Assembly: GCA_048941015.1 (NCBI GenBank)
Contig: JBHLNZ010000008.1
Location: 1-64,000 of the forward strand
DNA from: Promethearchaeota archaeon
GTDB taxonomy: Archaea; Asgardarchaeota; Lokiarchaeia; Sigyniarchaeales; SOKP01
Direction: 5' to 3'
DNA length: 64,000 bases
Shown piece by piece: positions 791 through 16,833 of this stretch (position 1 is the first letter of the stretch; each line of letters opens with the position of its first letter). Made by a program: the position numbers and the translations under genes. A model generated the notes under the pieces. That model saw nothing but the letters and a program-made list of their open reading frames with translations. It was not told the DNA's origin and made no database searches.

Positions 791-3040
791 TTATACAAGT
801 TTATATAGATTTATTTCCAAGTTTTTCAATTTTTCTTTATTATCATTAGACCTAGCCAACCAAGGTAATATTCCTTTTTCAATATTATAGAGATTAGCAT
901 CAATACCAATCCAATTTAGATTTAATTCAGAAGCAGTTTTTAATACAATTCCTAATTGGCAAAAACAATCCAAAATAAGGTCATTTTCAGTGGATGTTAG
1001 GTATAATAGTTTTTTGTATAATTTCTCTGGACGAAATGGTTTATTTATTGAAAAAGTAGGATGATCTTTTAATTTAATAAATAGACTTTGAATGGAACCG
1101 AATTGACCAGTATCAAGCCATAAAGAATTTGGTGTTGTTCCGCCATTCCCTGTTTTTCTAAATTCGTCCATTCTTTCTGAAAAAAAGATTTTAAGTCTTG
1201 GTATCCCTTTTCCTCTTTTTGGTTTAGTAAAATGAATACGATTCTCTTCTTCATATTTTTGAAGTGTATCTTTAGCATATCTAAATTTTCGAGTTAAAGA
1301 CAATCCATTTTTAAATACATAAGTATATATTTCATTTGAAGACTTTTCTGAAGCAATTAATGGTCTTGATTCCCATGGACCTCTTGGATCATTATCTGGA
1401 TTTTTATAAAGCTCATCAGATGGAGGAAATTTATTGAATTTCTTAAGATTTTCGTCTTTACTATATAAAAGAATATAATCAAAAGGATATTTGTAATATT
1501 TACTAAAATCTATTTTAATTGAAGAAAAGAGTTTGCTTTTTTCCAACTTTCTCCATATTATAGTTCCAATATAGTTTGATTTTCCGAATATTTCATCTAA
1601 AATAATCTTTAATTTTGGATAATTAGCCTCAATTGTGTGAACAATAATAAAACCAGTATCTTTAAGCATTTTTTTTACTTTATGGAATTGCAACTCACAA
1701 AAGGAGAGATATTGTTCAGATGTAAAACATGATAAATCTTGAAAACTAACAGGTGGAGCAAATATAACGGATTGAACTTTTTTAGATTTATCCATATCTT
1801 CAAAATATTCAGATAAAAAACTTAGTACATGAGAATAGTTCCCTTGAATTATTGTATTTTTGAGCAAATCAAAATTAGTCTTAGTTTTATTATCTTCACT
1901 TCTTTTTATTTTAACTAATTTACGTAATCCTGAGAAAGAAGATTCATTTTCTTTGAGCCATTTGATATTATTGATTTCATTATTTTTATTAATTTCAAAA
2001 ACAATGTCATTTTTTTTATTTGGCCAGTTTAATGTTAATTCTCCTTTAATTTCACCATAATCGTTTTCTTGTTTGGGGATTCTATTTTTATGATCACTTA
2101 TTAGTTGATAAACCTTACAACCACCTCCTCCTTTCCAATTAACTTTTCGAGTAATACCAATATCGATTTGAGGTTTTTCAGTGATTATTTGAGTAATTCT
2201 TTTTTCAGCCAAAGAAAAAGCAGTATTAATCGTTTCAATCCCTATGTAATTTCTTTTCATTTTATGGCTAACTGCTGCAGTTGTCCCCGAACCAAGGAAA
2301 CAATCTAAAACTAAATCATTTTCCTGTGTAGAAAGCCTTAAAAGATTATAAACTAACATTTCAGGTTTAGGTGTATCAAAAGCTGTTTTATTTCCAAAAT
2401 AGCTCTCTATTTCATTGGAGGCTTGTTGATTATAACCATATTTTGTAGGTTCAACCCATAGCATACTCTTGAGATGAGAATTATTGACTTTATTTTTATT
2501 TTTAGCATATATAAGAATATAATCGTGAATTGTGGATATCGTACTGGAGAGATTAGCTTGAGACTGTCTTCTTCTCCATATAATCGTACCAATTTTATTT
2601 TCTTCATTAAAAATTGAATTCATTAAGATTTCTAAATAGGCATGCTCATTATCATCAATCTGTAGAAAAATAATACCATCTTCTTGTAATAGTTCATGGA
2701 GCAATTTTAAACGTAAATGCATCATTCCTATCCATTCAATATCTTCAAAATGATCGTCATATGTACTGAAAACAAAACCAGTATTATATGGAGGATCGAT
2801 ATAAACACATTTCACCTTACCTCTAAAATCACTTACTAAAACTTTCAATGAAAGTAGACTATCTCCATGAATAAGGCGGTTATTAGTATCTTTTCTGCCT
2901 ATAGTTCTAATAAGTTCAAGTGAATAGTCTTTACGCAAAAGAGAGTCATTTCTATCTAGCCAAATAGGACTTTTAGGGATTCCATTTTGATTTAAATTAT
3001 AATATAATACTTTTTCTCTATTACTCCAATCTAATTCCAT
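791..3040 (-). CDS. Tandem two-module beta-class (Type III Mod-like) DNA methyltransferase; C-terminal module catalytically degenerate
   Basis: Module 1 has YIDPPYNTG, TPKPE and LDCFLGSGTT. Module 2 has FAPPV, KNPDNDPRGPW, FRPE and LDCFCQLG. Confidence 0.9.
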   Translation of the reverse strand: MELDWSNREKVLYYNLNQNGIPKSPIWLDRNDSLLRKDYSLELIRTIGRKDTNNRLIHGDSLLSLKVLVSDFRGKVKCVYIDPPYNTGFVFSTYDDHFEDIEWIGMMHLRLKLLHELLQEDGIIFLQIDDNEHAYLEILMNSIFNEENKIGTIIWRRRQSQANLSSTISTIHDYILIYAKNKNKVNNSHLKSMLWVEPTKYGYNQQASNEIESYFGNKTAFDTPKPEMLVYNLLRLSTQENDLVLDCFLGSGTTAAVSHKMKRNYIGIETINTAFSLAEKRITQIITEKPQIDIGITRKVNWKGGGGCKVYQLISDHKNRIPKQENDYGEIKGELTLNWPNKKNDIVFEINKNNEINNIKWLKENESSFSGLRKLVKIKRSEDNKTKTNFDLLKNTIIQGNYSHVLSFLSEYFEDMDKSKKVQSVIFAPPVSFQDLSCFTSEQYLSFCELQFHKVKKMLKDTGFIIVHTIEANYPKLKIILDEIFGKSNYIGTIIWRKLEKSKLFSSIKIDFSKYYKYPFDYILLYSKDENLKKFNKFPPSDELYKNPDNDPRGPWESRPLIASEKSSNEIYTYVFKNGLSLTRKFRYAKDTLQKYEEENRIHFTKPKRGKGIPRLKIFFSERMDEFRKTGNGGTTPNSLWLDTGQFGSIQSLFIKLKDHPTFSINKPFRPEKLYKKLLYLTSTENDLILDCFCQLGIVLKTASELNLNWIGIDANLYNIEKGILPWLARSNDNKEKLKNLEINLYKLV

Positions 3041-3348: not shown

Positions 3349-3870
3349 ATGTATGATGCAATTTTCAAGATAGTTGTTTTTGGTGATGCGGGGTGTGGAA
3401 AAACTACTTTAACAAAGAGATACGTCACTGATTTATTTATTCCAGACTCCCATATGACCATCGGAGTCGATTTTGAAATAAAGGATATTAAGGTTAATGG
3501 ATATCATGTAAAATTATGTTTATGGGATTTTGGAGGAGAAGAAAGATTTCGATTTATCTTCCCAAAATACATTTCTGGAGCAATGGGAGGGATTTTAATG
3601 TATGATGTTACAAGTGATTCATCCTTGTCCCATGTTCATGAGTGGTTATCAGTTATAAATGGAACCCACAATAAGATTCCTATTATTTTAGTAGGTGGAA
3701 AGAAGGATTTAGATACTTTTCGCGAAGTATCTTATAAAGAGGGTTTTAAAATTGCAAAATCATTGGGTTTAGATTACTTTTTAGAATGTTCAAGTAAAAC
3801 AGGTGAGAATGTAGAAAAAATCTTCGAAAAATTGACAGAATTGATGGTTAATATGGCCATAATCTACTAG
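3349..3870 (+). CDS. Rab-like small GTPase (Asgard type)
   Basis: G1 GDAGCGKT, TIGVDF, G3 WDFGGEERF, G4 GGKKD, G5 ECSSK. Confidence 0.95.
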   Translation: MYDAIFKIVVFGDAGCGKTTLTKRYVTDLFIPDSHMTIGVDFEIKDIKVNGYHVKLCLWDFGGEERFRFIFPKYISGAMGGILMYDVTSDSSLSHVHEWLSVINGTHNKIPIILVGGKKDLDTFREVSYKEGFKIAKSLGLDYFLECSSKTGENVEKIFEKLTELMVNMAIIY

Positions 3871-5513: not shown

Positions 5514-6263
5514 ATGAACATTATTCAAATTTTATTATTATCTATATTGGGGTTAATTATTATTCTATTTTTAATACTTGCACTTCCACGTAAAATAAAT
5601 GACAGGATGCCAAGTATAGAAGGTTTAGATGATCATAAGGTTGCTGAAGCATTTGAGAAGATGAACAGAACTCCTCCCTTCAAGATTTTAAGAAAAAAGG
5701 TAATTTCAGAACTAAAGAGATTAAATCCATCAGGAGTTATCTTAGATTTAGGATGCGGCACAGGAAATCTTATTATTAAAATAGCTAAAGCGTTTCCTGA
5801 AAATGAAATTATTGGAATTGATATTTCTAGTGAAGTACTTGATATTGCGAAACATAATGTAGAGAAAAAGGTTATTAATCAAGATATAAAATTTAAAGTT
5901 GGCAGTGCTGAAGATTTGCCTTTTCCTAGTGAGAGTATAAATTTAATTATTAGTTCTCTTTCACTCCATCATTGGTTAGATCCAATTAAGGCTTTAAATG
6001 AAATTTACCGTGTATTATCTAAAAATGGAGCATGTTTAATTTTTGATTTTCGCAGAAATTCAAGAAAGTTTTTTTATGGGCTTTTAAAATTTGCCACTTA
6101 TATTGTTGTACCTAAAGCATTAAAAGAGATTAAAGAACCATTAGGATCCCTTATAGCATCATACACAGCAAATGAAGTAATTCGAATAGTTGAGCAAAGC
6201 CCCTTTAAAACCGTTAAAATAACACCATATTTAGCATGGATGTTTTTAAATTTAAAGAAATGA
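5514..6263 (+). CDS. Class I SAM-dependent methyltransferase (UbiE-like) with N-terminal membrane anchor
   Basis: ILDLGCGTG, GIDIS, SLSLHHW; hydrophobic N-terminus. Confidence 0.9.
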   Translation: MNIIQILLLSILGLIIILFLILALPRKINDRMPSIEGLDDHKVAEAFEKMNRTPPFKILRKKVISELKRLNPSGVILDLGCGTGNLIIKIAKAFPENEIIGIDISSEVLDIAKHNVEKKVINQDIKFKVGSAEDLPFPSESINLIISSLSLHHWLDPIKALNEIYRVLSKNGACLIFDFRRNSRKFFYGLLKFATYIVVPKALKEIKEPLGSLIASYTANEVIRIVEQSPFKTVKITPYLAWMFLNLKK

Positions 6264-6284
6264 TTGAGCTATGATATATTATGA

Positions 6285-7511
6285 TTAGCTAAGAACTTCT
6301 GAAATATCTTGACCATTCTCGAATATCGCTTTTGCTTTTTCCATAAAATCAGGGATATCAATTTGCTGTGGACATTTTTCCAAGCATTCACCACATTTTA
6401 TGCATAAGCTTGCTGCTCCATCTACCTCCTGTCCTTGAGCTTTCTGTTTTTCAAGTTCGTCTTGGCTTTTCACCAATCTATTATAAAAAGAAGTTATACG
6501 TTCTCTTCTGGGTTCTCCCCAATATGCAATCTCATTTAATAGTAAGAAAATATAAGGAATTGTGACTCCATTTTGGCAGGGCATACAATATCCACAATTT
6601 GTGCAAGGAATAATGGTATATTCATTAAATGCTGAAGCTAAATCTGAAATTGTATCTAATTCATTGGGAGTTAAAAGATTTATCCCCGAATTGTTAGCAG
6701 ATTCTACGTTTTCTATTACTTGTTGCATACTACTCATCCCACTTAGTACAACTGATACTTCAGCTTGGTTCCAAAGGAATTGTAATGCCCAATCTGCCAT
6801 TGTTCTTTTAACTTCGGATTTTTCAAGTACTTTCTTGATTTCGGGCTTTTTATCTAAGGCCTTATCCGGAATCGCTAATTTTCCACCTCGAATAGGTTCC
6901 ATAATAATAACGGCTATATTTTTACTTGCTGCATATTTAAGACCCTTAGTACCGGCTTGATAATTAATATCAAGATAATTATGTTGAATTTGGCAACATT
7001 CCCATTGATAATAGTCGATTATATCTTTAAAAACATCAAAACTGTCATGGAAAGAAAAACCAAAATGTTTGATAATACCATTTACCTTGATTTCTTTCAT
7101 ATTAGTTATCAAATCGAATTTTTTTAGCTTTTCAAAGCGCGTTTTATTTAAACCATGAAAAAGGTAAATATCTGGAGTGGTTTGTAATCTTTCAATCTGC
7201 TGATTTAACAATAATTCAAAATCTCCTTTTTGTGTTAGTAACCACATTGGTAGTTTAGTAGTTAGATATACTTTCTCACGATAACCGTCCTTTAGAGCCT
7301 TACCGATAACTACTTCACTCATACCATCATGGTATGGGTAAGCGGTATCAATATAGTTCACACCATGATCAATCGCATAACGAATCATTTTGATCGATTC
7401 TTCTTCATTAACTTTATTTTCCTCTGTTGTTGGTAAACGCATAGCTCCAAATCCAAGAGCAGAAACCTTCCAATCCAGTGATCCCATTTTTCTATATTTC
7501 ATAAGCATCAA
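6285..7511 (-). CDS. Aldo/keto reductase with C-terminal 4Fe-4S dicluster
   Basis: LGFGAMRLP, YIDTAYPY, MEPIRGG; CTNCGYCMPC and CIKCGECLEKCP. Confidence 0.93.
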   Translation of the reverse strand: MMLMKYRKMGSLDWKVSALGFGAMRLPTTEENKVNEEESIKMIRYAIDHGVNYIDTAYPYHDGMSEVVIGKALKDGYREKVYLTTKLPMWLLTQKGDFELLLNQQIERLQTTPDIYLFHGLNKTRFEKLKKFDLITNMKEIKVNGIIKHFGFSFHDSFDVFKDIIDYYQWECCQIQHNYLDINYQAGTKGLKYAASKNIAVIIMEPIRGGKLAIPDKALDKKPEIKKVLEKSEVKRTMADWALQFLWNQAEVSVVLSGMSSMQQVIENVESANNSGINLLTPNELDTISDLASAFNEYTIIPCTNCGYCMPCQNGVTIPYIFLLLNEIAYWGEPRRERITSFYNRLVKSQDELEKQKAQGQEVDGAASLCIKCGECLEKCPQQIDIPDFMEKAKAIFENGQDISEVLS

Positions 7512-7630
7512 ACACTTGAGAAGATTATATTAATCCATTTAGTGACTTCTTTTTGATAAAATTTATTAATTTTTACTTGATAAAATTAAGGAGAAAAATA
7601 AAAGAAGAAAAAGTAAAATTTAATTATATT

Positions 7631-8968
7631 TTAGCTAATTCTATATTGAGTCTTTAAGAAATTAACAATAAATTTATTTACTTTACTACGATCAGGTAAG
7701 CTTGCAACCATTCCATACATTGCAGCTTCACCATCAGATAGCTTTTCAGGATGGTCACGAACTTTATTTACAGCATCATTGAGATCTTTTAGGAAATCAT
7801 CAACAACATCAGCGTGATGTGGATTAACCATCATATGTAAAGCAGAGGGAAATTGAATTCGATCCAAATGCCAACCTTTTTCATCTAAAACATCTCCGAT
7901 TTGAAAAATATTTAATTTATCAGATGTAAAAGAAAATACGCTCATTACAGGGTTTCCAATCACATACAATTCAGGGATTTGGTTAATCCCGTCAATTAAT
8001 TTTTCTGTAGCATCCATTACAATCTTTGCTAATTTCAAATATCCATTGATTCCTAATGTTCTCATTGCAACCCACGCTGCTGCTATCGCACCTCCAGGAC
8101 GCGTCCCCCTCATAGTAGTAGAAATATAAACCCCACCAGACCAGTCTGTATAGACTGAAAATTGATGTTGCCATACTTTTTCACTTCGATAAAGGATTGT
8201 AGAAGCTCCTTTAGCACCATAGCCATATTTATGAACATCTGCTGATATTGAAGTAACCCCTGGAACTGAAAAATCAAAATCAGGTACTTCATAACCTAAC
8301 ATTCTGACAAAAGGTAACATAAAACCTCCGAGACAAGAATCAACATGCATACCTAAACCATGTTTCTCAGCTATAGCTGCTAAAGACGAAATAGGATCAA
8401 CAACACCTCTGGGAAAATCACATGCTGAACCAACGATGAGAATTGTATTATTATTTACAGCTTTTTCCATAGCTTTCACATCTGCTCGATGAGTTTTTTC
8501 GTCTACTGGTATAATTATTGGTTTCACATCAAAATAATCTGCGCCTTTATAGAAAGCAGGATGTGCCGAGCTAGGTAATATCATTTCAGGATTTTTAATA
8601 TCAGGAAATTTTTCTCTTGCCCAGTCTCGATAAGTTTTAACCGCCATTACTATACTTTCGGTTCCTCCAGAGGTCATACTGCCACAGCATTTTTTATCGC
8701 CTCTAAATAAATCAATTGCCATTGAAACGACTTCGGTTTCGAATTTTCTTAAGCTTGGAAAAGCCAATGGGCTTAAAGCATTCTTGGAGAAAAACATATT
8801 ATAGCTCTTCTTAAGTAATTCAGTATGTTCGTTAGAAGCATGATAAACTAAACTCCAAACTCTACCTTCTTCCCACTGAATATCATCTTTAGCAATACTT
8901 TCCATTTCTTTTATGAGATCATCACTGGGAATACCATTTTCAGGTATAACTACTTTAGGTCTAACCAT
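7631..8968 (-). CDS. Sphingosine-1-phosphate lyase-like PLP-dependent enzyme (group II decarboxylase fold)
   Basis: TSGGTESI, SAHPAF, HVDSCLGGF, SADVHKYGY (PLP lysine), GTRPGG. Confidence 0.88.
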   Translation of the reverse strand: MVRPKVVIPENGIPSDDLIKEMESIAKDDIQWEEGRVWSLVYHASNEHTELLKKSYNMFFSKNALSPLAFPSLRKFETEVVSMAIDLFRGDKKCCGSMTSGGTESIVMAVKTYRDWAREKFPDIKNPEMILPSSAHPAFYKGADYFDVKPIIIPVDEKTHRADVKAMEKAVNNNTILIVGSACDFPRGVVDPISSLAAIAEKHGLGMHVDSCLGGFMLPFVRMLGYEVPDFDFSVPGVTSISADVHKYGYGAKGASTILYRSEKVWQHQFSVYTDWSGGVYISTTMRGTRPGGAIAAAWVAMRTLGINGYLKLAKIVMDATEKLIDGINQIPELYVIGNPVMSVFSFTSDKLNIFQIGDVLDEKGWHLDRIQFPSALHMMVNPHHADVVDDFLKDLNDAVNKVRDHPEKLSDGEAAMYGMVASLPDRSKVNKFIVNFLKTQYRIS

Positions 8969-9076: not shown

Positions 9077-10198
9077 TTAGGAATTTAAAGAGATAATTTT
9101 GCTTTCTTTGGAAGATTGATAAGCCATCTCGATAATTTCATGTGCTCTATACCCAATTTCTAATCCGGGATAAGGCTTTTTTTCTTCGATGATTGACTTC
9201 AAAAAATTGAGGTCTTCGAACATGAAATGTCCAGTATTTGGGTATACTAAGGGCAAATTATGAGCTTTTTGATACTCTTGAATAATATCTCCAGCATTAA
9301 GTTTAGTTCGTTTCCTTTCTATTAAATATTCAAATTTCCTGAAATAAATATCGCTAAATCCTCCCAATAATAAATATCCATTTTCAAAGAAAATTTCAAT
9401 TAATCTCGCATCCATTTTTGTTTTGTTCCAAATACTTGTTAAATTTCCAGTAAAGCCATCTTCATACTCAAAATTTAAATTTGCTACATCTTCAATTTGA
9501 TTCTGAGATAAAGGAGCGACAAATCTCACTTTGGCAAATAGATTTAAGAGTTTGAAGTTATCTCCAAAAAAGTAATCAAGTATATCAACATCATGAATAC
9601 TATGTTCGAATAAACAACCAGCATGAGCTAAAGTGGGATCTTTCCTCCAATCCGAACGAAAATTACGCCATTCGACTGGCCATCTTTGAGTGCTTCTTGA
9701 GATAAAAGATAATCTTTCACCAAGGCTTTCCTTATTTTCTAATAAGATTTGTTTTAATTTCCACATAGTAGGACAATGTCTTAATACTAAACCTACCTGT
9801 GCAAATATGTTTTGTTTCTTTTCAACAGAAACCATTTCCTTAATATCTTCTAATGAAAATGCGAGTGGTTTTTCACAAAAAATGTTTTTTCCCGATTCAG
9901 CAGCTTTAATAAAATAATCTTTGTGAAATCGAGTTGGGGTGGTAATATACATTATATCAATTAATTTATCTTTAATTAATTCTTCAGGATTGATTGTGAA
10001 ATAATCAATATTATATGGATTCTTTTTTTTTATGCTATTTAATGAATCTTCATTAATATCTGCTACTCCACGTATATTTAACTTAATTTTATAATTTGAG
10101 AGGAGATTTTTTTCTATTATATTCTTTAAGGAAAGCAAGTGTGTTAATCCAATATTTCCAGCTCCAATCAGCCCTATATTTAAATTCATTAAAACCAT
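9077..10198 (-). CDS. Gfo/Idh/MocA family oxidoreductase
   Basis: GLIGAGNIG, CEKPLA, EHSIHDVD. Confidence 0.9.
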   Translation of the reverse strand: MVLMNLNIGLIGAGNIGLTHLLSLKNIIEKNLLSNYKIKLNIRGVADINEDSLNSIKKKNPYNIDYFTINPEELIKDKLIDIMYITTPTRFHKDYFIKAAESGKNIFCEKPLAFSLEDIKEMVSVEKKQNIFAQVGLVLRHCPTMWKLKQILLENKESLGERLSFISRSTQRWPVEWRNFRSDWRKDPTLAHAGCLFEHSIHDVDILDYFFGDNFKLLNLFAKVRFVAPLSQNQIEDVANLNFEYEDGFTGNLTSIWNKTKMDARLIEIFFENGYLLLGGFSDIYFRKFEYLIERKRTKLNAGDIIQEYQKAHNLPLVYPNTGHFMFEDLNFLKSIIEEKKPYPGLEIGYRAHEIIEMAYQSSKESKIISLNS

Positions 10199-10291
10199 TC
10201 CAGTGCATTAATTAAATCAGAAAAGTTTTAATTTAAATTAAATTTAATTCTTCTACAAAAAAGTGAATTTGAAATGCATCTCATTTAATTA

Positions 10292-11473
10292 TTGAAAGTA
10301 ATTATGATGTATGATGTTGTAATTTCAGGAGCAGGTCCTTCAGGGTCTCAATGTGCAGAAGTATTAACTAAAGCAGGTTTTAATGTTGCTTTGCTAGAAA
10401 AAGATATAAACTGGCGCAAACCCTGTGGAGGTGCTATTAATCGTCGTGTTTTAAATTACTATCCAAAATTAAGAAAATTAGATTTACCAAAAATTCGGGG
10501 AATATCTATACATTCATCGGATTATCATGAGTTAGAATATGAAGTTGGAGAGAAATCTCGTGGAAGTGTAATGGATCGTTTAGATCTTGATAATTTGATG
10601 AGAAATATGGCAGTAGATAGTGGAGCTGAGCTTTTTGACAAAAATCTTTCGGTAGATTTTATTATAAAAAATCAAAAAAAAGTTGGTATTCTTACTAAAA
10701 CTCCAACTGGTAAAAAAGAATATATTGGGAAAATATTGGTATTAGCAGATGGTATGAGTTCCAAGTTAGCACTAAAATCAGGAATAAGAAAAAAATGGGA
10801 AACTGGAGAGATTGCAAACGGAAAGTGTGCAATTATGGTGGGAAGCCATAATTTAGATGAGGGATTTATATATATCTACTTTATGCCTTATAAAGGATAT
10901 GGTTGGATATTCCCTTTAGATAATAAGAAATTCAATATTGGAGTTTATACATTTGGAAAAGATAATCTCAACTATAACTTAGACAAGATTTATCATGAGT
11001 TTCTTCAAAATCCAAATATAAAAAAGCTTATTCCAGGTTCGAATTACAAAACTTTTTGGTCAGGTGCTTATCCTTTTCCAACAGAAGGTGTACTTGTAAA
11101 AAGTTTATATGATGATAATTTACTCTTAATAGGTGATACAGCAGGTTTTGTATCTCCAATTAGCGGTGAGGGTATTCAAACTGCATTGAGTTCTGGAAAT
11201 GTTGCTGCAAATATTGCAATTAAAGCTCTTGAATTAGAAGATTATTCTAAAAATATTTTGAAATCATATAAAAGTCATCCTAATATAAAAAAAATTGTAA
11301 AATCTTTTAAGCTAAAACGATCAATGAGACAATTCTTTTATGCTAACAAGGGAGAAGATCTAAATAAATTATTAGAACTCACGGAAGGAGATGAAGAATT
11401 TAAGAGTAAAGTAATTGATCTTTTTATGTCTAGAGACGTTCCTGTAGAAGAAATCTTCTCAAGACTTAGATAA
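10292..11473 (+). CDS. Geranylgeranyl reductase family FAD oxidoreductase
   Basis: GAGPSG, KPCGG, ADG, GYGWIFP, GDTAGFVSPISGEGI. Confidence 0.9.
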   Translation: MKVIMMYDVVISGAGPSGSQCAEVLTKAGFNVALLEKDINWRKPCGGAINRRVLNYYPKLRKLDLPKIRGISIHSSDYHELEYEVGEKSRGSVMDRLDLDNLMRNMAVDSGAELFDKNLSVDFIIKNQKKVGILTKTPTGKKEYIGKILVLADGMSSKLALKSGIRKKWETGEIANGKCAIMVGSHNLDEGFIYIYFMPYKGYGWIFPLDNKKFNIGVYTFGKDNLNYNLDKIYHEFLQNPNIKKLIPGSNYKTFWSGAYPFPTEGVLVKSLYDDNLLLIGDTAGFVSPISGEGIQTALSSGNVAANIAIKALELEDYSKNILKSYKSHPNIKKIVKSFKLKRSMRQFFYANKGEDLNKLLELTEGDEEFKSKVIDLFMSRDVPVEEIFSRLR

Positions 11474-11508
11474 GAATTTTTATTGATATAAATAAAAGGA
11501 ATTAGTTA

Positions 11509-12348
11509 TTATTCATGTGGCAAAATTATTACTAGCGTTATGATAATAATCAAGCCTGCAATGAATATTAATGCTTGAATGATGGACTTTTTTAAATCTT
11601 TTTGCTTTATCAATTCAGGCATCAATTCTGTGCTAGCTAAATACAAGAATCCTCCACCTGAGAATGCTAGAAAGAATAAATTAAATAATTCGACTGTATC
11701 AGATAAAATGAACCCTAATATTCCTCCAAGTAATGCGACCATCGCACTTAGAAAATTGAAAAAGAGAGCTTTCTTTTTAGTAAAACCACCGTATAAAAGA
11801 ATCCCAAAATCCCCTACTTCCTGTGGTAATTCATGAAACAAAACAGCAAGCGTAATGACAATACCATTTCCAAATCCACTTAGAAAAGAAACCATTATAA
11901 TAACGCCATCTAAGAAATTATGTAAACCATCGCCTATCAAATTAAGAAGAGCGAAACTTTTTATTTTTCCACCCCTATTTACCATTATATCGGGGCCTTC
12001 TGTAATACTATCATAACAAACCAACTGGTCCTCTTTTTGATGTGCATGTCCATGAAACCAATAAATAAATCGTTCGAGTATAAAAAAAATGACATATCCA
12101 ATAATTATAAAAACAAAGACAATGCTTTCATTTAATGCTGCTCCTTCGGCATTCAATTCTTCAAGATGGTGTATTGATTCAGGTATTAAATCGAATAAAG
12201 ATGAAGCAAGAATTGTACCAGTTGCAAATGCAATAAGTATGAATAGAAGGCGGTCTAAGGTTCTTTCTTTGATAGAAATCATGAATAAGCCAATCAAACT
12301 AAGGAGTCCTATGAGAAAAATCATTAAGAAGCCAATAAGTATATTCAA
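11509..12348 (-). CDS. ZIP family zinc/metal transporter
   Basis: HGHAH loop, GDGLHNFLDG, HELPQEVGDFG, multiple TM helices. Confidence 0.93.
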   Translation of the reverse strand: MNILIGFLMIFLIGLLSLIGLFMISIKERTLDRLLFILIAFATGTILASSLFDLIPESIHHLEELNAEGAALNESIVFVFIIIGYVIFFILERFIYWFHGHAHQKEDQLVCYDSITEGPDIMVNRGGKIKSFALLNLIGDGLHNFLDGVIIMVSFLSGFGNGIVITLAVLFHELPQEVGDFGILLYGGFTKKKALFFNFLSAMVALLGGILGFILSDTVELFNLFFLAFSGGGFLYLASTELMPELIKQKDLKKSIIQALIFIAGLIIIITLVIILPHE

Positions 12349-13329: not shown

Positions 13330-13544
13330 TTTAATATATTTTTACTTCAATAATTCAGTTGCTTATAAAATAAATTTCATGTATAAAAATTCAAATAATA
13401 TTTACAAAATACTTCTTTAAGAACGACGGTTTGAAAAAATCCGAAGCAGGCATTATTACAAATTTTCTGCTTCCAGTTAATTTATAAAAAGTATTTAATA
13501 TTTGAGAATATTTACTATTTTAAAATTATTGATTAAGGATAATA

Positions 13545-14333
13545 TTGAAAACTACTATTTTTTATTTTACAGGGACAGGAAATTCGCTTAAAGTCGCTAT
13601 CGATCTATGTAACTTATTAGATAATTGTGTGCTTAACCCAATGGTAAAAGAATGGGAAAAAGACGTAATTAATGTAATTACTGAAAATGTAGGTTTTGTT
13701 TTTCCAATGCATTACTGGGGATTACCACGAGTTGTATATGATTTCATTAATAAATTAAGTTTGAATAAAGTAAAATACCTTTTCGCAGTAATTACAAGAG
13801 CTAGTGATGTAGATGGCATAGCTTTAGTTCAAATAGAAGAACTTCTGAATAAGAATGCAAAGCATCTTAATGCGGCTTATTTTGTTGAAATGCCAGCGAA
13901 TTTTATATTAGGGGAAGATATCTACTCTAAAGAAGAACAAGAAAGAGTTTTCAAAGAAGAAGAAAAAGAAATTGGTAAGATTGCAAATGACGTTATGACA
14001 AGAAAGACGTTTATAGAGATTGATCCTACTAAAAAGAAAAGATCTTTTGAAAAAACTAATAAAGGATTTCGTGATAATGTTTTCGAAAGTGACAAATTTT
14101 TCTATGCAGATGAAACTTGTAATAGTTGTGGCATTTGTGAGAAGATATGTCCATTAAATAATATTAAAATTTTAGAAGGAAAACCTCAATGGCAGCATCG
14201 GTGTGTTCAGTGTTTAGCATGTATTCATTATTGCCCTGAAGGATCAATTCAGTATGGTGATAAAACAATTGAAAGAGGAAGATATCATCATCCTAAAATT
14301 ACCATAAAAGATATGATTGGTCAGAAATCTTAG
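13545..14333 (+). CDS. EFR1-type flavodoxin-ferredoxin fusion
   Basis: YFTGTGNS; CNSCGICEKICP; CVQCLACIHYCP; RYHHP. Confidence 0.9.
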   Translation: MKTTIFYFTGTGNSLKVAIDLCNLLDNCVLNPMVKEWEKDVINVITENVGFVFPMHYWGLPRVVYDFINKLSLNKVKYLFAVITRASDVDGIALVQIEELLNKNAKHLNAAYFVEMPANFILGEDIYSKEEQERVFKEEEKEIGKIANDVMTRKTFIEIDPTKKKRSFEKTNKGFRDNVFESDKFFYADETCNSCGICEKICPLNNIKILEGKPQWQHRCVQCLACIHYCPEGSIQYGDKTIERGRYHHPKITIKDMIGQKS

Positions 14334-14455
14334 ATTATAAAAATTCTGTTATTCTGAAGTATTTTTGTTAAAAAATATTTTTTTGTAATCGGCTTTTAGG
14401 ACTTAAAGGTTAATTTTATAAATCGCTCGAACTAAGAGGTAATAATAAACATCTT

Positions 14456-15727
14456 GTGATAAATAAATTGGAACGAGAAAAAGTATATTTAAAATTATTT
14501 AGCAAGAAGCTAATTAGTTTCAAAAAACTTAAATCCGGAGAAATTATTGGTACAGGCCTATTGAATCCTATCCTCGATAGATTAGGATTCTTTACAATGC
14601 TTCTTATACAAGCTAAATTTTATAGAGGATATAAAAATTTAGGTAAATGGAATGGAAAAAGAATTGCTAATACTTTTGCTCCTCCTGTTGGTAGTAAACC
14701 GATGTTTCGATTATTAAAAGCAGCAATAAAAGGCCGTATATTAAAATATAAATTTCCTGTTGCTATGACTTTTGCTGTGACATATAAATGTCAGTGTAAA
14801 TGTGTTCATTGTAGTGCAGGAAAGCATTTAAGAAAGGATGTGCCTGAGCTTACTACAAAGGAAGCAAAAAGAGTTATTGATGAGAGTTTAAACCTCGGTA
14901 TATCTATTCTTGCTTTTACAGGAGGAGAACCATTATTACGAGACGACATTTTTGAGCTTATATCTCATGTTGATAAAAGAAAAGCGGTACCTATTCTGTT
15001 TACTAATGGTCAATTTTTAAATGAAGAAAATTCAAAAAAATTAGCTGAAGCAGGATTATATTCAATTTTTGTAAGCATTGATAGTCCTTATCCAGATGAA
15101 CATGATAATCTAAGAGGGATGCCTGGGCTTTTTGATTCAGCCATAAAGGGAATTGAGCATATGAAATCTCAAGGTATCTTTGTTGGTTTATCATCCTATG
15201 CTACCCGCTCAGGAACCGATAGAGGTATGTATAAAAAGATTTATACTCTTGCGAGAAAACTCGATCTAAAGAATGTAATGCTTTTTGATGGTGTTCCAAC
15301 AGGTAATATGCTAAAAAATACTAGTGAGATGTTAACATATGAGCAAAGAGAGGAAATAAGGGAGTTTTCTTCAAAGATTTTTAAAAATGACATAATACCA
15401 CCACTTTCTTCACAAGCGTGGCAGAATTCTATTGAAGGATACCTTGGTGGTATTGGATGTCTCGCAGGGAATATTCAATATTATGTTTCAGCATATGGAG
15501 ATGTTACTCCATGTGATTTTACCCCTTTAAGTTTTGGAAACATACGAAAGGAATCTCTCAGCAAGATCTGGAATAGGATGGTAAAACATCCCGCATATAA
15601 TCATAGAAGTACTTTTTGCAGAATGCAAAATCAAAAGTTCCGTCATTTCTACATTGATCCAATTCCTGATAATGTTATTCTTCCATATGATATTAATAGA
15701 CTTGCCTACATTGATTATAGGAAGTAA
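14456..15727 (+). CDS. Radical SAM protein with SPASM/twitch domain
   Basis: CQCKCVHC, FTGGEP, GCLAG...GDVTPC, FGNIR. Confidence 0.92.
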   Translation: MINKLEREKVYLKLFSKKLISFKKLKSGEIIGTGLLNPILDRLGFFTMLLIQAKFYRGYKNLGKWNGKRIANTFAPPVGSKPMFRLLKAAIKGRILKYKFPVAMTFAVTYKCQCKCVHCSAGKHLRKDVPELTTKEAKRVIDESLNLGISILAFTGGEPLLRDDIFELISHVDKRKAVPILFTNGQFLNEENSKKLAEAGLYSIFVSIDSPYPDEHDNLRGMPGLFDSAIKGIEHMKSQGIFVGLSSYATRSGTDRGMYKKIYTLARKLDLKNVMLFDGVPTGNMLKNTSEMLTYEQREEIREFSSKIFKNDIIPPLSSQAWQNSIEGYLGGIGCLAGNIQYYVSAYGDVTPCDFTPLSFGNIRKESLSKIWNRMVKHPAYNHRSTFCRMQNQKFRHFYIDPIPDNVILPYDINRLAYIDYRK

Positions 15728-15747
15728 AGCTGATTAGATTAATGGTC

Positions 15748-16833
15748 CTATTTGGAAAATTCATCAAAAGTTTTAAATTTAGGTTTATTTTTTTTCAATT
15801 CTATTTTTTTTAAAAAGGATGTTGAGAAGATCTTTTCTTTGTTAAGAGATTCTATCACTTTTGAGTAAATTAATTCTTTATTTTTTTTTATATCATCATC
15901 GGGAAGTATTTCTATGTTTGTTTTTGATTTCCAAGTTAAATCAATAATTATTTTTATAATGGATTTAGTAGTATCTGTTCCTATGTTTGTATAATCTGCT
16001 TCAATTTTGGGTATTCTCCAATCTTCCATAATTCTTTTTTCGATTAAATCTTTATAATTCTCGTTTATCTCATATCCTATTCCTTTTCTTTTAAATAATC
16101 TACAGACCTTGAGAGTTGTCCCCGAACCTAAGAAAGGATCTAGAACAGTTTCACCTTCTACTGTATGCATTCTTATCAGTCGATAAGGAATATTCTCTGG
16201 AAATGGGGCAGGATGACCAAAAACGTTTTCTCCTTTACTACTAATTTTAATTACGGGAGAAATATCATCCCAAATACATCTTACCGCCCAATGTCGCCAT
16301 TCAGATTTCGTTAATAAGTTACTCTCTAAAATTTCTTTATCAATAGTCCGTGTTTTGCCTTTTTTAACCCATACAAATATTTGTTCAAATGAAGTATTTG
16401 AAGCGATATTAGTGGGTTTTGGATAACTTCCCCATGAAACATTATTTATATAAGCAGATTTGTCCCAATAATGCATCCCACTTAGATAAAGCTCATTTTT
16501 TCTCATAAATGCCTCAATATCAAACATGATATTTTGAATAATTCGTCGATTAAAACCTGAATATTCCCTGCTTATGGGTAATGGTTGGAAATTGATTGCA
16601 ATTTTTCCATTTGGTTGTAAAGTGCGAATGCACTCTTTCCAAACTTTATTTAAAGAGGTAATATATTGATTATAGGATTGTCCAAATCCGATTTGATTGA
16701 CATCTCCGTAATCTTTTACATTCCAATAAGGCGGTGAGGTCACGATTAATGTAATGGATTCTGAATCGACTTCTTCCATATGTTCAGAAGATTTAAAAAA
16801 GACTAACTGGTTGTCGATTCTCATTTCATGCAT
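15748..16833 (-). CDS. Orphan beta-class N4-C/N6-A DNA methyltransferase
   Basis: VTSPPYW, HPAPFP, LDPFLGSGTT, IGYE; no nuclease nearby. Confidence 0.92.
   Translation of the reverse strand: MHEMRIDNQLVFFKSSEHMEEVDSESITLIVTSPPYWNVKDYGDVNQIGFGQSYNQYITSLNKVWKECIRTLQPNGKIAINFQPLPISREYSGFNRRIIQNIMFDIEAFMRKNELYLSGMHYWDKSAYINNVSWGSYPKPTNIASNTSFEQIFVWVKKGKTRTIDKEILESNLLTKSEWRHWAVRCIWDDISPVIKISSKGENVFGHPAPFPENIPYRLIRMHTVEGETVLDPFLGSGTTLKVCRLFKRKGIGYEINENYKDLIEKRIMEDWRIPKIEADYTNIGTDTTKSIIKIIIDLTWKSKTNIEILPDDDIKKNKELIYSKVIESLNKEKIFSTSFLKKIELKKNKPKFKTFDEFSK

Follow-up and report, generated by a model that had tools for sequence, protein, structure and literature searches.

The 64,000-nucleotide stretch of DNA analyzed here (hereafter the window; positions 1 to 64,000 of contig JBHLNZ010000008.1, assembly GCA_048941015.1, Promethearchaeota archaeon) carries an open reading frame (ORF) that codes for two modules of the beta-class, Type III Mod type of DNA methyltransferase in a single chain. 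The protein is probably a single-chain pseudo-heterodimer with divided labor, composed of a catalytic module followed by a reader module. Module 1 would bind S-adenosylmethionine (SAM) and methylate a flipped base, most likely adenine at N6, with no target recognition domain (TRD) of its own. Module 2 would neither bind SAM nor catalyze, and its TRD would read the DNA sequence. The two are predicted to pack via their N-terminal strands and methyltransferase (MTase) cores in the fashion of a Mod2 dimer, and the window copy, which has neither Res nor the Res-associated C-terminal domain (CTD), would act as a solitary (orphan) DNA methyltransferase. What the comparisons show is the anatomy of the protein, the recurrence of its motif pattern across the family, purifying selection, the variants of gene order, and the co-occurrence of Res with a C-terminal extension. 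We infer that catalysis belongs to module 1 only and reading to module 2 only, with DNA as the substrate and N6-methyladenine as the product; methylation of N6-adenine in DNA is predicted because of the DPPY motif and the affinity of the protein to Mods.

The gene is one uninterrupted frame of 749 codons and a stop, whose features are collected in Table 1. PF01555 (N6_N4_Mtase) matches the whole protein in two stretches in Pfam (E 9.8e-68, 228.8 bits for a cut-off of 26.7), and PADLOC types it as MTase_III (2e-102). As PF01555 matches twice and both halves align to each other (E 2e-12 and 4e-9, 25-32% identity), the repeat does not stem from chance. Both modules open with an EL.L.W strand, as an earlier note made from the sequence had remarked. 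The same note had described a module 1 with intact motifs but with its TRD cut to about ten residues, and a module 2 with a full TRD-like insert but degenerate motifs, and all of these were located anew by recomputed coordinates. In module 1, YAKNK (aa 178-182) is separated from the next LW by 11 residues, as compared with more than 100 in module 2, and TPKPE follows at aa 223-227. The TRD of module 2 includes YKNPDNDPRGPW (aa 545-556, 1373-1408) and PNSLW (aa 637-641, 1118-1132). Motif IV precedes motif I, and both are competent ([DNSH]PP[YFW] and FxGxG), in module 1 only; module 2 fits neither pattern. In relatives with split genes, the place of the linker is taken by the C-terminal tail of the module-1 protein together with the N-terminus of the module-2 protein.

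Table 1. Features of the two-module methyltransferase gene (positions in the window; aa, residues of the protein).
Feature	Positions	Strand	Description
Whole ORF	791..3040	-	Two-module beta-class (Type III Mod-type) methyltransferase in a single chain; PF01555, PADLOC MTase_III
Module 1 (aa 1-315), predicted catalytic	2096..3040	-	N-terminal domain and MTase core, without TRD and CTD; structural match to Mod chains
MELDW (aa 1-5), module 1 N-terminal strand	3026..3040	-	Within the predicted inter-module interface
Motif IV DPPY (aa 82-85), intact	2786..2797	-	Module 1
Missing-TRD site, 11 residues (aa 183-193)	2462..2494	-	Insert of ~100 aa at this site in ordinary relatives and in module 2
Motif I FLGSG (aa 248-252)	2285..2299	-	Module 1; intact SAM-binding glycine loop
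Linker (aa 316-333)	2042..2095	-	Low model confidence; fastest-evolving part of the protein
Module 2 (aa 334-749), predicted recognition	794..2041	-	Mod-like fold, TRD present, motifs IV and I degenerate
ELTLNW (aa 334-339), module 2 N-terminal strand	2024..2041	-	MELDW counterpart in the predicted pseudo-symmetric interface
Motif IV APPV (aa 428-431), degenerate	1748..1759	-	Module 2
Module-2 TRD (~aa 534-641, YKNPDNDPRGPW to PNSLW)	1118..1441	-	Most conserved region of the protein
Motif I FCQLG (aa 693-697), degenerate	950..964	-	Module 2; Gln in place of the first FxGxG glycine

The division of motifs between the modules extends to the relatives of the window protein. In a census of 76 aligned rows with the patterns DPP[YF] and F.G[ST][GAC], both motifs were found in all 22 module-1-like rows and in all 31 ordinary Mods, but in none of the 22 aligned module-2 rows. 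Motif IV of module 2 takes such forms as APPV, APPI, SPPI, SPPL, TPPR, RPPH, CAPL and CPPL, among others, with A, S, T, C or R at the first position and V, I, L, H, R, P or M at the last. None of the 22 rows fits the [D/N/S/H]PP[Y/F/W] consensus that bacterial 6mA enzymes require (PMC12485025). Two members, P0124 and P0125, end just before module-2 motif I, their SAM-binding (motif I-III) half being gone and their TRD intact. The complementary degeneration described in the earlier note, with a catalytic module that has lost its TRD and a TRD-bearing dead module, hence recurs in every family member, and module 2 is, judged by its motifs, a beta-class fold but not a competent enzyme. The ordinary Mods, whose TRDs display a YxNPDxDPRGxW scaffold (H. 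pylori 6K0W, the Asgard proteins L007 of 421 aa and L008 of 637 aa, and many bacterial proteins of about 360 aa), have the same TRD scaffold and core and are the best sequence matches of the window protein. Unlike the window protein, they hold DPPY, TRD and FxGxG in one module, and they form a clan separate from modules 1 and 2.

Two methyltransferase domains per chain are also characteristic of the FokI-type tandem Type IIS methyltransferases, in which each of the two domains is an active enzyme that serves one strand. Both modules of the window protein might similarly act on the two strands of an asymmetric site, with module 2 using non-canonical motifs, and it is true that most module-2 copies keep the Pro-Pro of motif IV and that the motif begins with Ser in some of them (SPPI, SPPL), as the consensus allows. 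This reading is very improbable, given that no module-2 copy has a terminal aromatic residue or an FxGxG loop, that the catalytic positions of module 2 vary freely and that two members are devoid of the SAM-binding half. Intact catalytic and SAM motifs are thus not found in both domains, one domain of the window family lacking them in every aligned member, unlike in the FokI-type enzymes.

The regime of selection on module 2 was estimated by comparing the window gene with its syntenic ortholog in genome G065. The ratio of nonsynonymous to synonymous substitution rates (dN/dS) is 0.21 for module 1, 0.22 for module 2 overall, 0.06 for the module-2 TRD and 0.63 for the linker (aa 316-334). The lack of purifying selection on module 2, which the earlier note had named as a sign of a decaying fusion, is therefore not what is found. 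Family-wide, the TRD is the best-conserved region (55-93% identity), and no relative, down to 39% identity, has a broken module-2 frame. A module 2 that would be the functionless, decaying remnant of a fusion or a duplication might account for the fact that its MTase core is the least conserved part, with 27-40% identity in distant members vs. 47-64% for the module-1 core. Nevertheless, the dN/dS values, the intact frames, and the retention of module 2 as a separate gene in split forms make such decay extremely improbable.

By sequence, the closest solved relatives of the protein are the H. pylori Mod 6K0W (3.6e-32), the EcoP15I Mod 4ZCF (5e-26), and the Mbo45V Mod 7DSU. In the alignments, the N-terminal and C-terminal halves of the Mods match module 1, and the Mod TRD region (YKNPDNDPNGAW in 6K0W) matches module 2. 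An AlphaFold2 model of the window protein built on 17 family sequences has a mean predicted local distance difference test score (pLDDT) of 82 and a predicted template modeling score (pTM) of 0.83, with pLDDT below 50 at residues 318-332. The module 1 model (residues 1-316) superposes equally well on 6k0w_B (Z 31.1, root mean square deviation (rmsd) 2.4, 283 aligned residues) and on 4zcf_A (Z 31.1, rmsd 3.2, 277 aligned), spanning about residues 36-495 and 56-522 of these chains, respectively, i.e., their N-terminal domain (NTD) and MTase core, with the TRD skipped. For the reader, the model of the homolog P0015 (pLDDT 79) aligns over 334 residues with positions 64-517 of the EcoP15I Mod (rmsd 4.9, Z 25.4), a match that must therefore include the TRD. 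The Mod-like structure with its NTD, MTase core and central TRD is present, but these features are shared out between the modules and are not assembled in each of them.

That the two parts form a pair is supported by split relatives, in which they are adjacent genes, and by the complex predicted for one such pair, P0122 and P0009. Their ipSAE interface score is 0.87, compared with 0.00 for the best of three controls, and the mark used is reached by 58 of 80 solved complexes and by 2 of 110 mismatched pairs; agreement of contacts between runs was at least 85%, and the pLDDT of the partners was at least 80. Because structures of Mod dimers have been solved, the high score may stem from resemblance to them and not constitute independent evidence. 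The predicted interface involves equivalent elements of the two chains, namely the N-terminal EL.L.W strands (residues 1-6 of the module-1 protein touching residues 11-16 of its partner), the helix that follows the DD.E motif (130-141 with 146-157) and the GTIIW strand (151-172 with 162-172), in a predicted pseudo-two-fold arrangement of the kind described for Mod2. The position of the strand in this interface would explain why both modules keep their N-terminal EL.L.W motif. Fusion in some genomes and adjacency in others provide further evidence of a physical partnership.

The search for the same architecture in Asgard genomes, which had been advised in the earlier note, yielded a small family with several gene layouts. 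It was recovered by two database searches among about 15 billion proteins clustered at 50%, at which level about seven representatives are fused and a few have a single module. Fused, Res-less genes include that of the window, P0003-P0005 (76-80% identity), and P0012, P0013, P0014, P0124, P0125 (about 40%), and their surroundings consist of ordinary genes. Two adjacent Res-less genes, with the catalytic one upstream and the reader 0-18 bp downstream, are found at loci L001, L002, and L026. In L017 and at the P0134 locus, three genes code for the catalytic protein (332 aa), a reader with a C-terminal extension (523 or 557 aa), and a ResIII helicase (936 or 741 aa), and the L017 Res matches PADLOC REase_III models (3.6e-22). 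L016 harbors a fusion with extension (900 aa) that overlaps the Res gene. Lastly, P0126 of locus L018 is a single chain of 1754 aa that joins catalytic module, reader, extension and ResIII, which would make it a single-polypeptide Type III-like restriction-modification (R-M) enzyme with built-in 1:1:1 stoichiometry. P0126 (L018:6001-11265, + strand) comes from a member of the Promethearchaeota and has TPPR for DPPY in its reader; a VapBC toxin-antitoxin pair lies just downstream of its gene. The Res-less picture drawn in the earlier note is thus valid for the window copy, none of whose neighbors is a Res helicase/nuclease, but not for the family, four relatives of which have a Type III Res adjacent or fused. 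Since the family is not Res-free, the solitary window gene is, on this comparative evidence, an orphan that derives from a variant of Type III R-M.

All named sources of family members are Promethearchaeota or Hodarchaeota, with which the Asgard attribution of the window fits, and other members adjoin archaeal markers such as ribosomal L37e or LSM. The family is apparently Asgard-restricted. Scanning contigs with conserved TRD peptides, which are shared with ordinary bacterial Mods, returned such Mods in 79 of 80 rows, the sole family member being L027, the P0013 contig labeled ‘uncultured archaeon’.

The distribution of parts between the two modules parallels the roles of the subunits in EcoP15I. 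In the Mod2Res1 structure, the TRD of ModA reads the DNA and its CTD holds Res, while the flipped adenine is received by ModB, which methylates it; the TRD of ModB lies outside the groove and its CTD is solvent-exposed, so that both are idle, and dimerization occurs via the NTDs and the MTase cores (Gupta et al., PMC4490356). Module 1 would then be the counterpart of ModB and module 2 that of ModA, because the catalytic unit is devoid of TRD and CTD, the reader is devoid of catalytic and SAM motifs, and a C-terminal extension occurs on readers only. This extension of ~110-150 aa, found on P0007, P0015, P0126, and P0134, is present in four of four Res-linked members and absent from all Res-less members examined, and in P0015 it falls outside the structural alignment to 4zcf_A. 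The window protein ends ~35 residues past module-2 motif II and has no such extension.

The window family thus has in common with EcoP15I Mod2 (PDB 4ZCF) its fold, with NTD, beta-class core and central TRD between motifs VIII and X, the asymmetry between reading and methylating, and, in relatives of the window gene, a Type III Res. However, the EcoP15I subunits are identical and fully equipped, and their asymmetry is conformational, whereas here it is genetic, and the units are separate genes or parts of one chain. In place of identical competent subunits, the window protein has two units of 25-32% identity, one of which has the motifs, and it lacks both an adjacent res gene and a Res-contacting C-terminal domain; an adjacent or fused Res is found in its relatives L016, L017, L018, and the P0134 locus. 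The earlier note had proposed that an EcoP15I-type asymmetry had been fixed in a single polypeptide. The asymmetry holds on comparative evidence, but it is not a product of fusion, as the split two-gene relatives share it.

The history of the pair was approached with an unrooted tree of 306 core columns (quick IQ-TREE). By the Shimodaira-Hasegawa-like approximate likelihood ratio test (SH-aLRT), the module-2 clan is supported at 100, that of the 16 true module-1 rows at 96 and that of the ordinary Mods at 97. Six short, module-1-like proteins considered as family members (P0139, P0178, P0221, P0218, P0242, and P0253) cluster among the ordinary Mods and were discarded. Because each module forms one clan and the branching orders of the two subtrees are broadly congruent, the pair has a single origin, after which its two parts diverged together. 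Fused members and split ones are intermingled in the tree, and FeoB/FeoA and ribosomal L37e neighbors are common to L003, where the pair is fused, and L026, where it is split, which indicates that fusion or fission took place more than once. Tandem duplication of one Mod gene is the likely origin, with the reservation that the tree is unrooted; the complementary loss posited in the earlier note stands, and its occurrence ‘after duplication’ is plausible.

Module 1 might alternatively be an autonomous small methyltransferase in the manner of the MboIIA and M.BceJIV homodimers, with module 2 as an accessory that regulates, tethers or stabilizes it and does not set the specificity. TRD-less beta-class proteins are indeed good structural matches to module 1 (9c3s_A, Z 24.7; 1g60_B, Z 23.0; 5hfj_C, Z 20.8). 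This alternative is nonetheless unlikely, since every member of the module-1 clan with a readable context has module 2 adjacent or fused, and since the strongest constraint in the protein bears on the module-2 TRD (dN/dS 0.06), a homolog of the DNA-reading domain of Mods.

Several points weigh against a division of labor between a catalytic module 1 and a reader module 2. The putative activity of the former and inactivity of the latter are read from motifs alone. Module 1 might work without module 2, as MboIIA, M1.HpyAVI, and M.BceJIV, which are short and have no large TRD, are active homodimers and match it with Z of 20-25. The predicted Mod2-like geometry is drawn from the pTM, a list of interface residues and single-chain alignments. 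In the tree, several module-2 rows are long-branched and the method was a quick one, and the deep nodes are of limited confidence. Finally, the P0015 extension, sought as a homolog of the EcoP15I CTD, gave no PDB sequence match at E up to 10.

The window gene was found in only two of the 27 same-genus genomes searched. Its locus is syntenic in G000 and G065. In the sampled phylum, strong matches were found in those two genomes only, and the other nine matches (E ~1e-21 to 1e-23, ~30% identity) look like ordinary Mods; the two that were inspected are ordinary Mods. In four other same-genus genomes, the neighboring metallo-beta-lactamase gene lies in a different context, and no empty site is definable. 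With the L017 Res as a query, no cognate Res was matched elsewhere in the host genome (95% complete), and the generic ResIII helicase domains on its other contigs are not informative in this respect. Since no Res was found and only two of the 27 genomes have the gene, the window copy appears to be an accessory, R-M-derived orphan methyltransferase and not a core gene.

An orphan of this kind could have left R-M biology altogether and act on RNA or another non-DNA substrate. This would be in line with the absence of a nuclease partner, with the housekeeping surroundings, including ribosomal L37e and LSM genes beside relatives, and with the action of eukaryotic beta-class relatives (METTL3-14) on RNA. 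However, sister members are linked to a DNA-acting Type III Res, the TRD scaffold is common with DNA Mods, and presence in two of 27 same-genus genomes is typical of R-M-derived genes, so that a non-DNA substrate seems quite improbable.

The eukaryotic enzymes had been cited as a parallel in the earlier note. In METTL3-METTL14 and the ciliate MTA1-MTA9, an active beta-class subunit is associated with a dead paralog that aids substrate binding, and MTA1c relies on additional subunits, p1 and p2, to bind DNA (PMC12485025). The logic of an active and a dead partner is common to these complexes and to the window family, and there is distant fold similarity. Nevertheless, the window protein has no PF05063 (MT-A70) match at E up to 1, its module 1 model matches MT-A70 chains with Z of 12.6-13.9 (about 13) vs. 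28-31 for Mod proteins, and the eukaryotic MT-A70 dead subunits, unlike the reader of the window family, have no Mod-type TRD. The parallel therefore holds for the logic of the pair and fails as a relationship; METTL3-METTL14 is best taken as an analogy. The origin of the gene in an Asgard archaeon is of interest, but nothing indicates ancestry to eukaryotic writers.

Considered as a whole, the family may well represent an undescribed Type III R-M subtype, in which the Mod homodimer is replaced by an obligate catalytic/reader hetero-pair (1:1:1 with Res, and in one instance a 1754-aa chain), the window gene being its domesticated, Res-less, single-chain orphan and an epigenetic writer. The literature searched yielded no account of a prokaryotic Mod pair in which one member is dead; REBASE was outside this search, and prior annotation there is possible. 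The 2015 EcoP15I structure led to the proposal that, in beta-class adenine methyltransferases, one of two identical protomers recognizes the DNA and the other catalyzes (PMC4490356), and a structural paper of 2025 still describes the bacterial enzymes as homodimers (PMC12485025). The loss from each protomer of precisely those elements that lie idle in EcoP15I, and the restriction of the extension to readers and to Res-linked members, lend independent comparative support to the structural model. The family also defines a hetero-Mod form of Type III R-M, single-chain versions included, and adds a prokaryotic case to the design of an active enzyme with a dead paralog known from METTL3-METTL14, MTA1-MTA9, and DNMT3A-DNMT3L. 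If true, the proposed division of labor would amount to a natural genetic demonstration that beta-class Mods need one protomer only for reading and the other only for methylating. It would likewise offer a scaffold whose specificity (module 2) and chemistry (module 1) can be physically separated, an attractive property for specificity swapping and structural study.

The neighbors of the window gene are genes for a repeat protein, a small GTPase, and a metallo-beta-lactamase-fold protein. The first (1-642, + strand) is an open-ended ORF for a highly repetitive Glu/Pro-rich protein with EPEPxYEP units, in which a short helix-like motif occurs three times; the repeats are also present at the syntenic G065 position. 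The second (3349-3870, + strand), divergent from the methyltransferase gene, codes for a small Ras/Rab-like GTPase, typical Asgard content, and shares 86% identity with its syntenic counterpart in G065.

The surroundings of several relatives deserve mention. In L001 (4393-4863, - strand) and L002 (4374-4838, - strand), the catalytic Mod gene has a divergent upstream neighbor that codes for a small SET-domain protein (154-156 aa, PF00856 E 1.4e-12), possibly placing a lysine methyltransferase by the DNA methyltransferase pair; no SET gene adjoins the window copy. In L024, the fused Res-less P0124 is flanked by VapBC and HepT/MNT toxin-antitoxin pairs (254-1867 and 5847-8147), and a SNF2-family helicase gene (DUF3670, SNF2-rel, Helicase_C) is found 1.8 kb downstream of it, after two unannotated genes. 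This context resembles a defense island and might provide P0124 with a different partner. In both L016 (7907-8583, + strand) and the P0134 locus (9985-12135), a gene with no Pfam match directly follows Res and may code for a fourth component of the system; its product is 716 aa long in the P0134 locus and is cut by the contig end in L016, and a VanZ-like gene lies upstream in both. L016 also carries a second small PF01555 methyltransferase gene (2052-2885, - strand; 277 aa), divergently upstream of the fused Mod-Mod-CTD gene. In L003, a Type IIG-like Eco57I/N6_Mtase gene (13451-15748, + strand; 765 aa) is located 3.5 kb from the fused orphan P0012, and this region therefore carries a second, unrelated methyltransferase of the R-M type.

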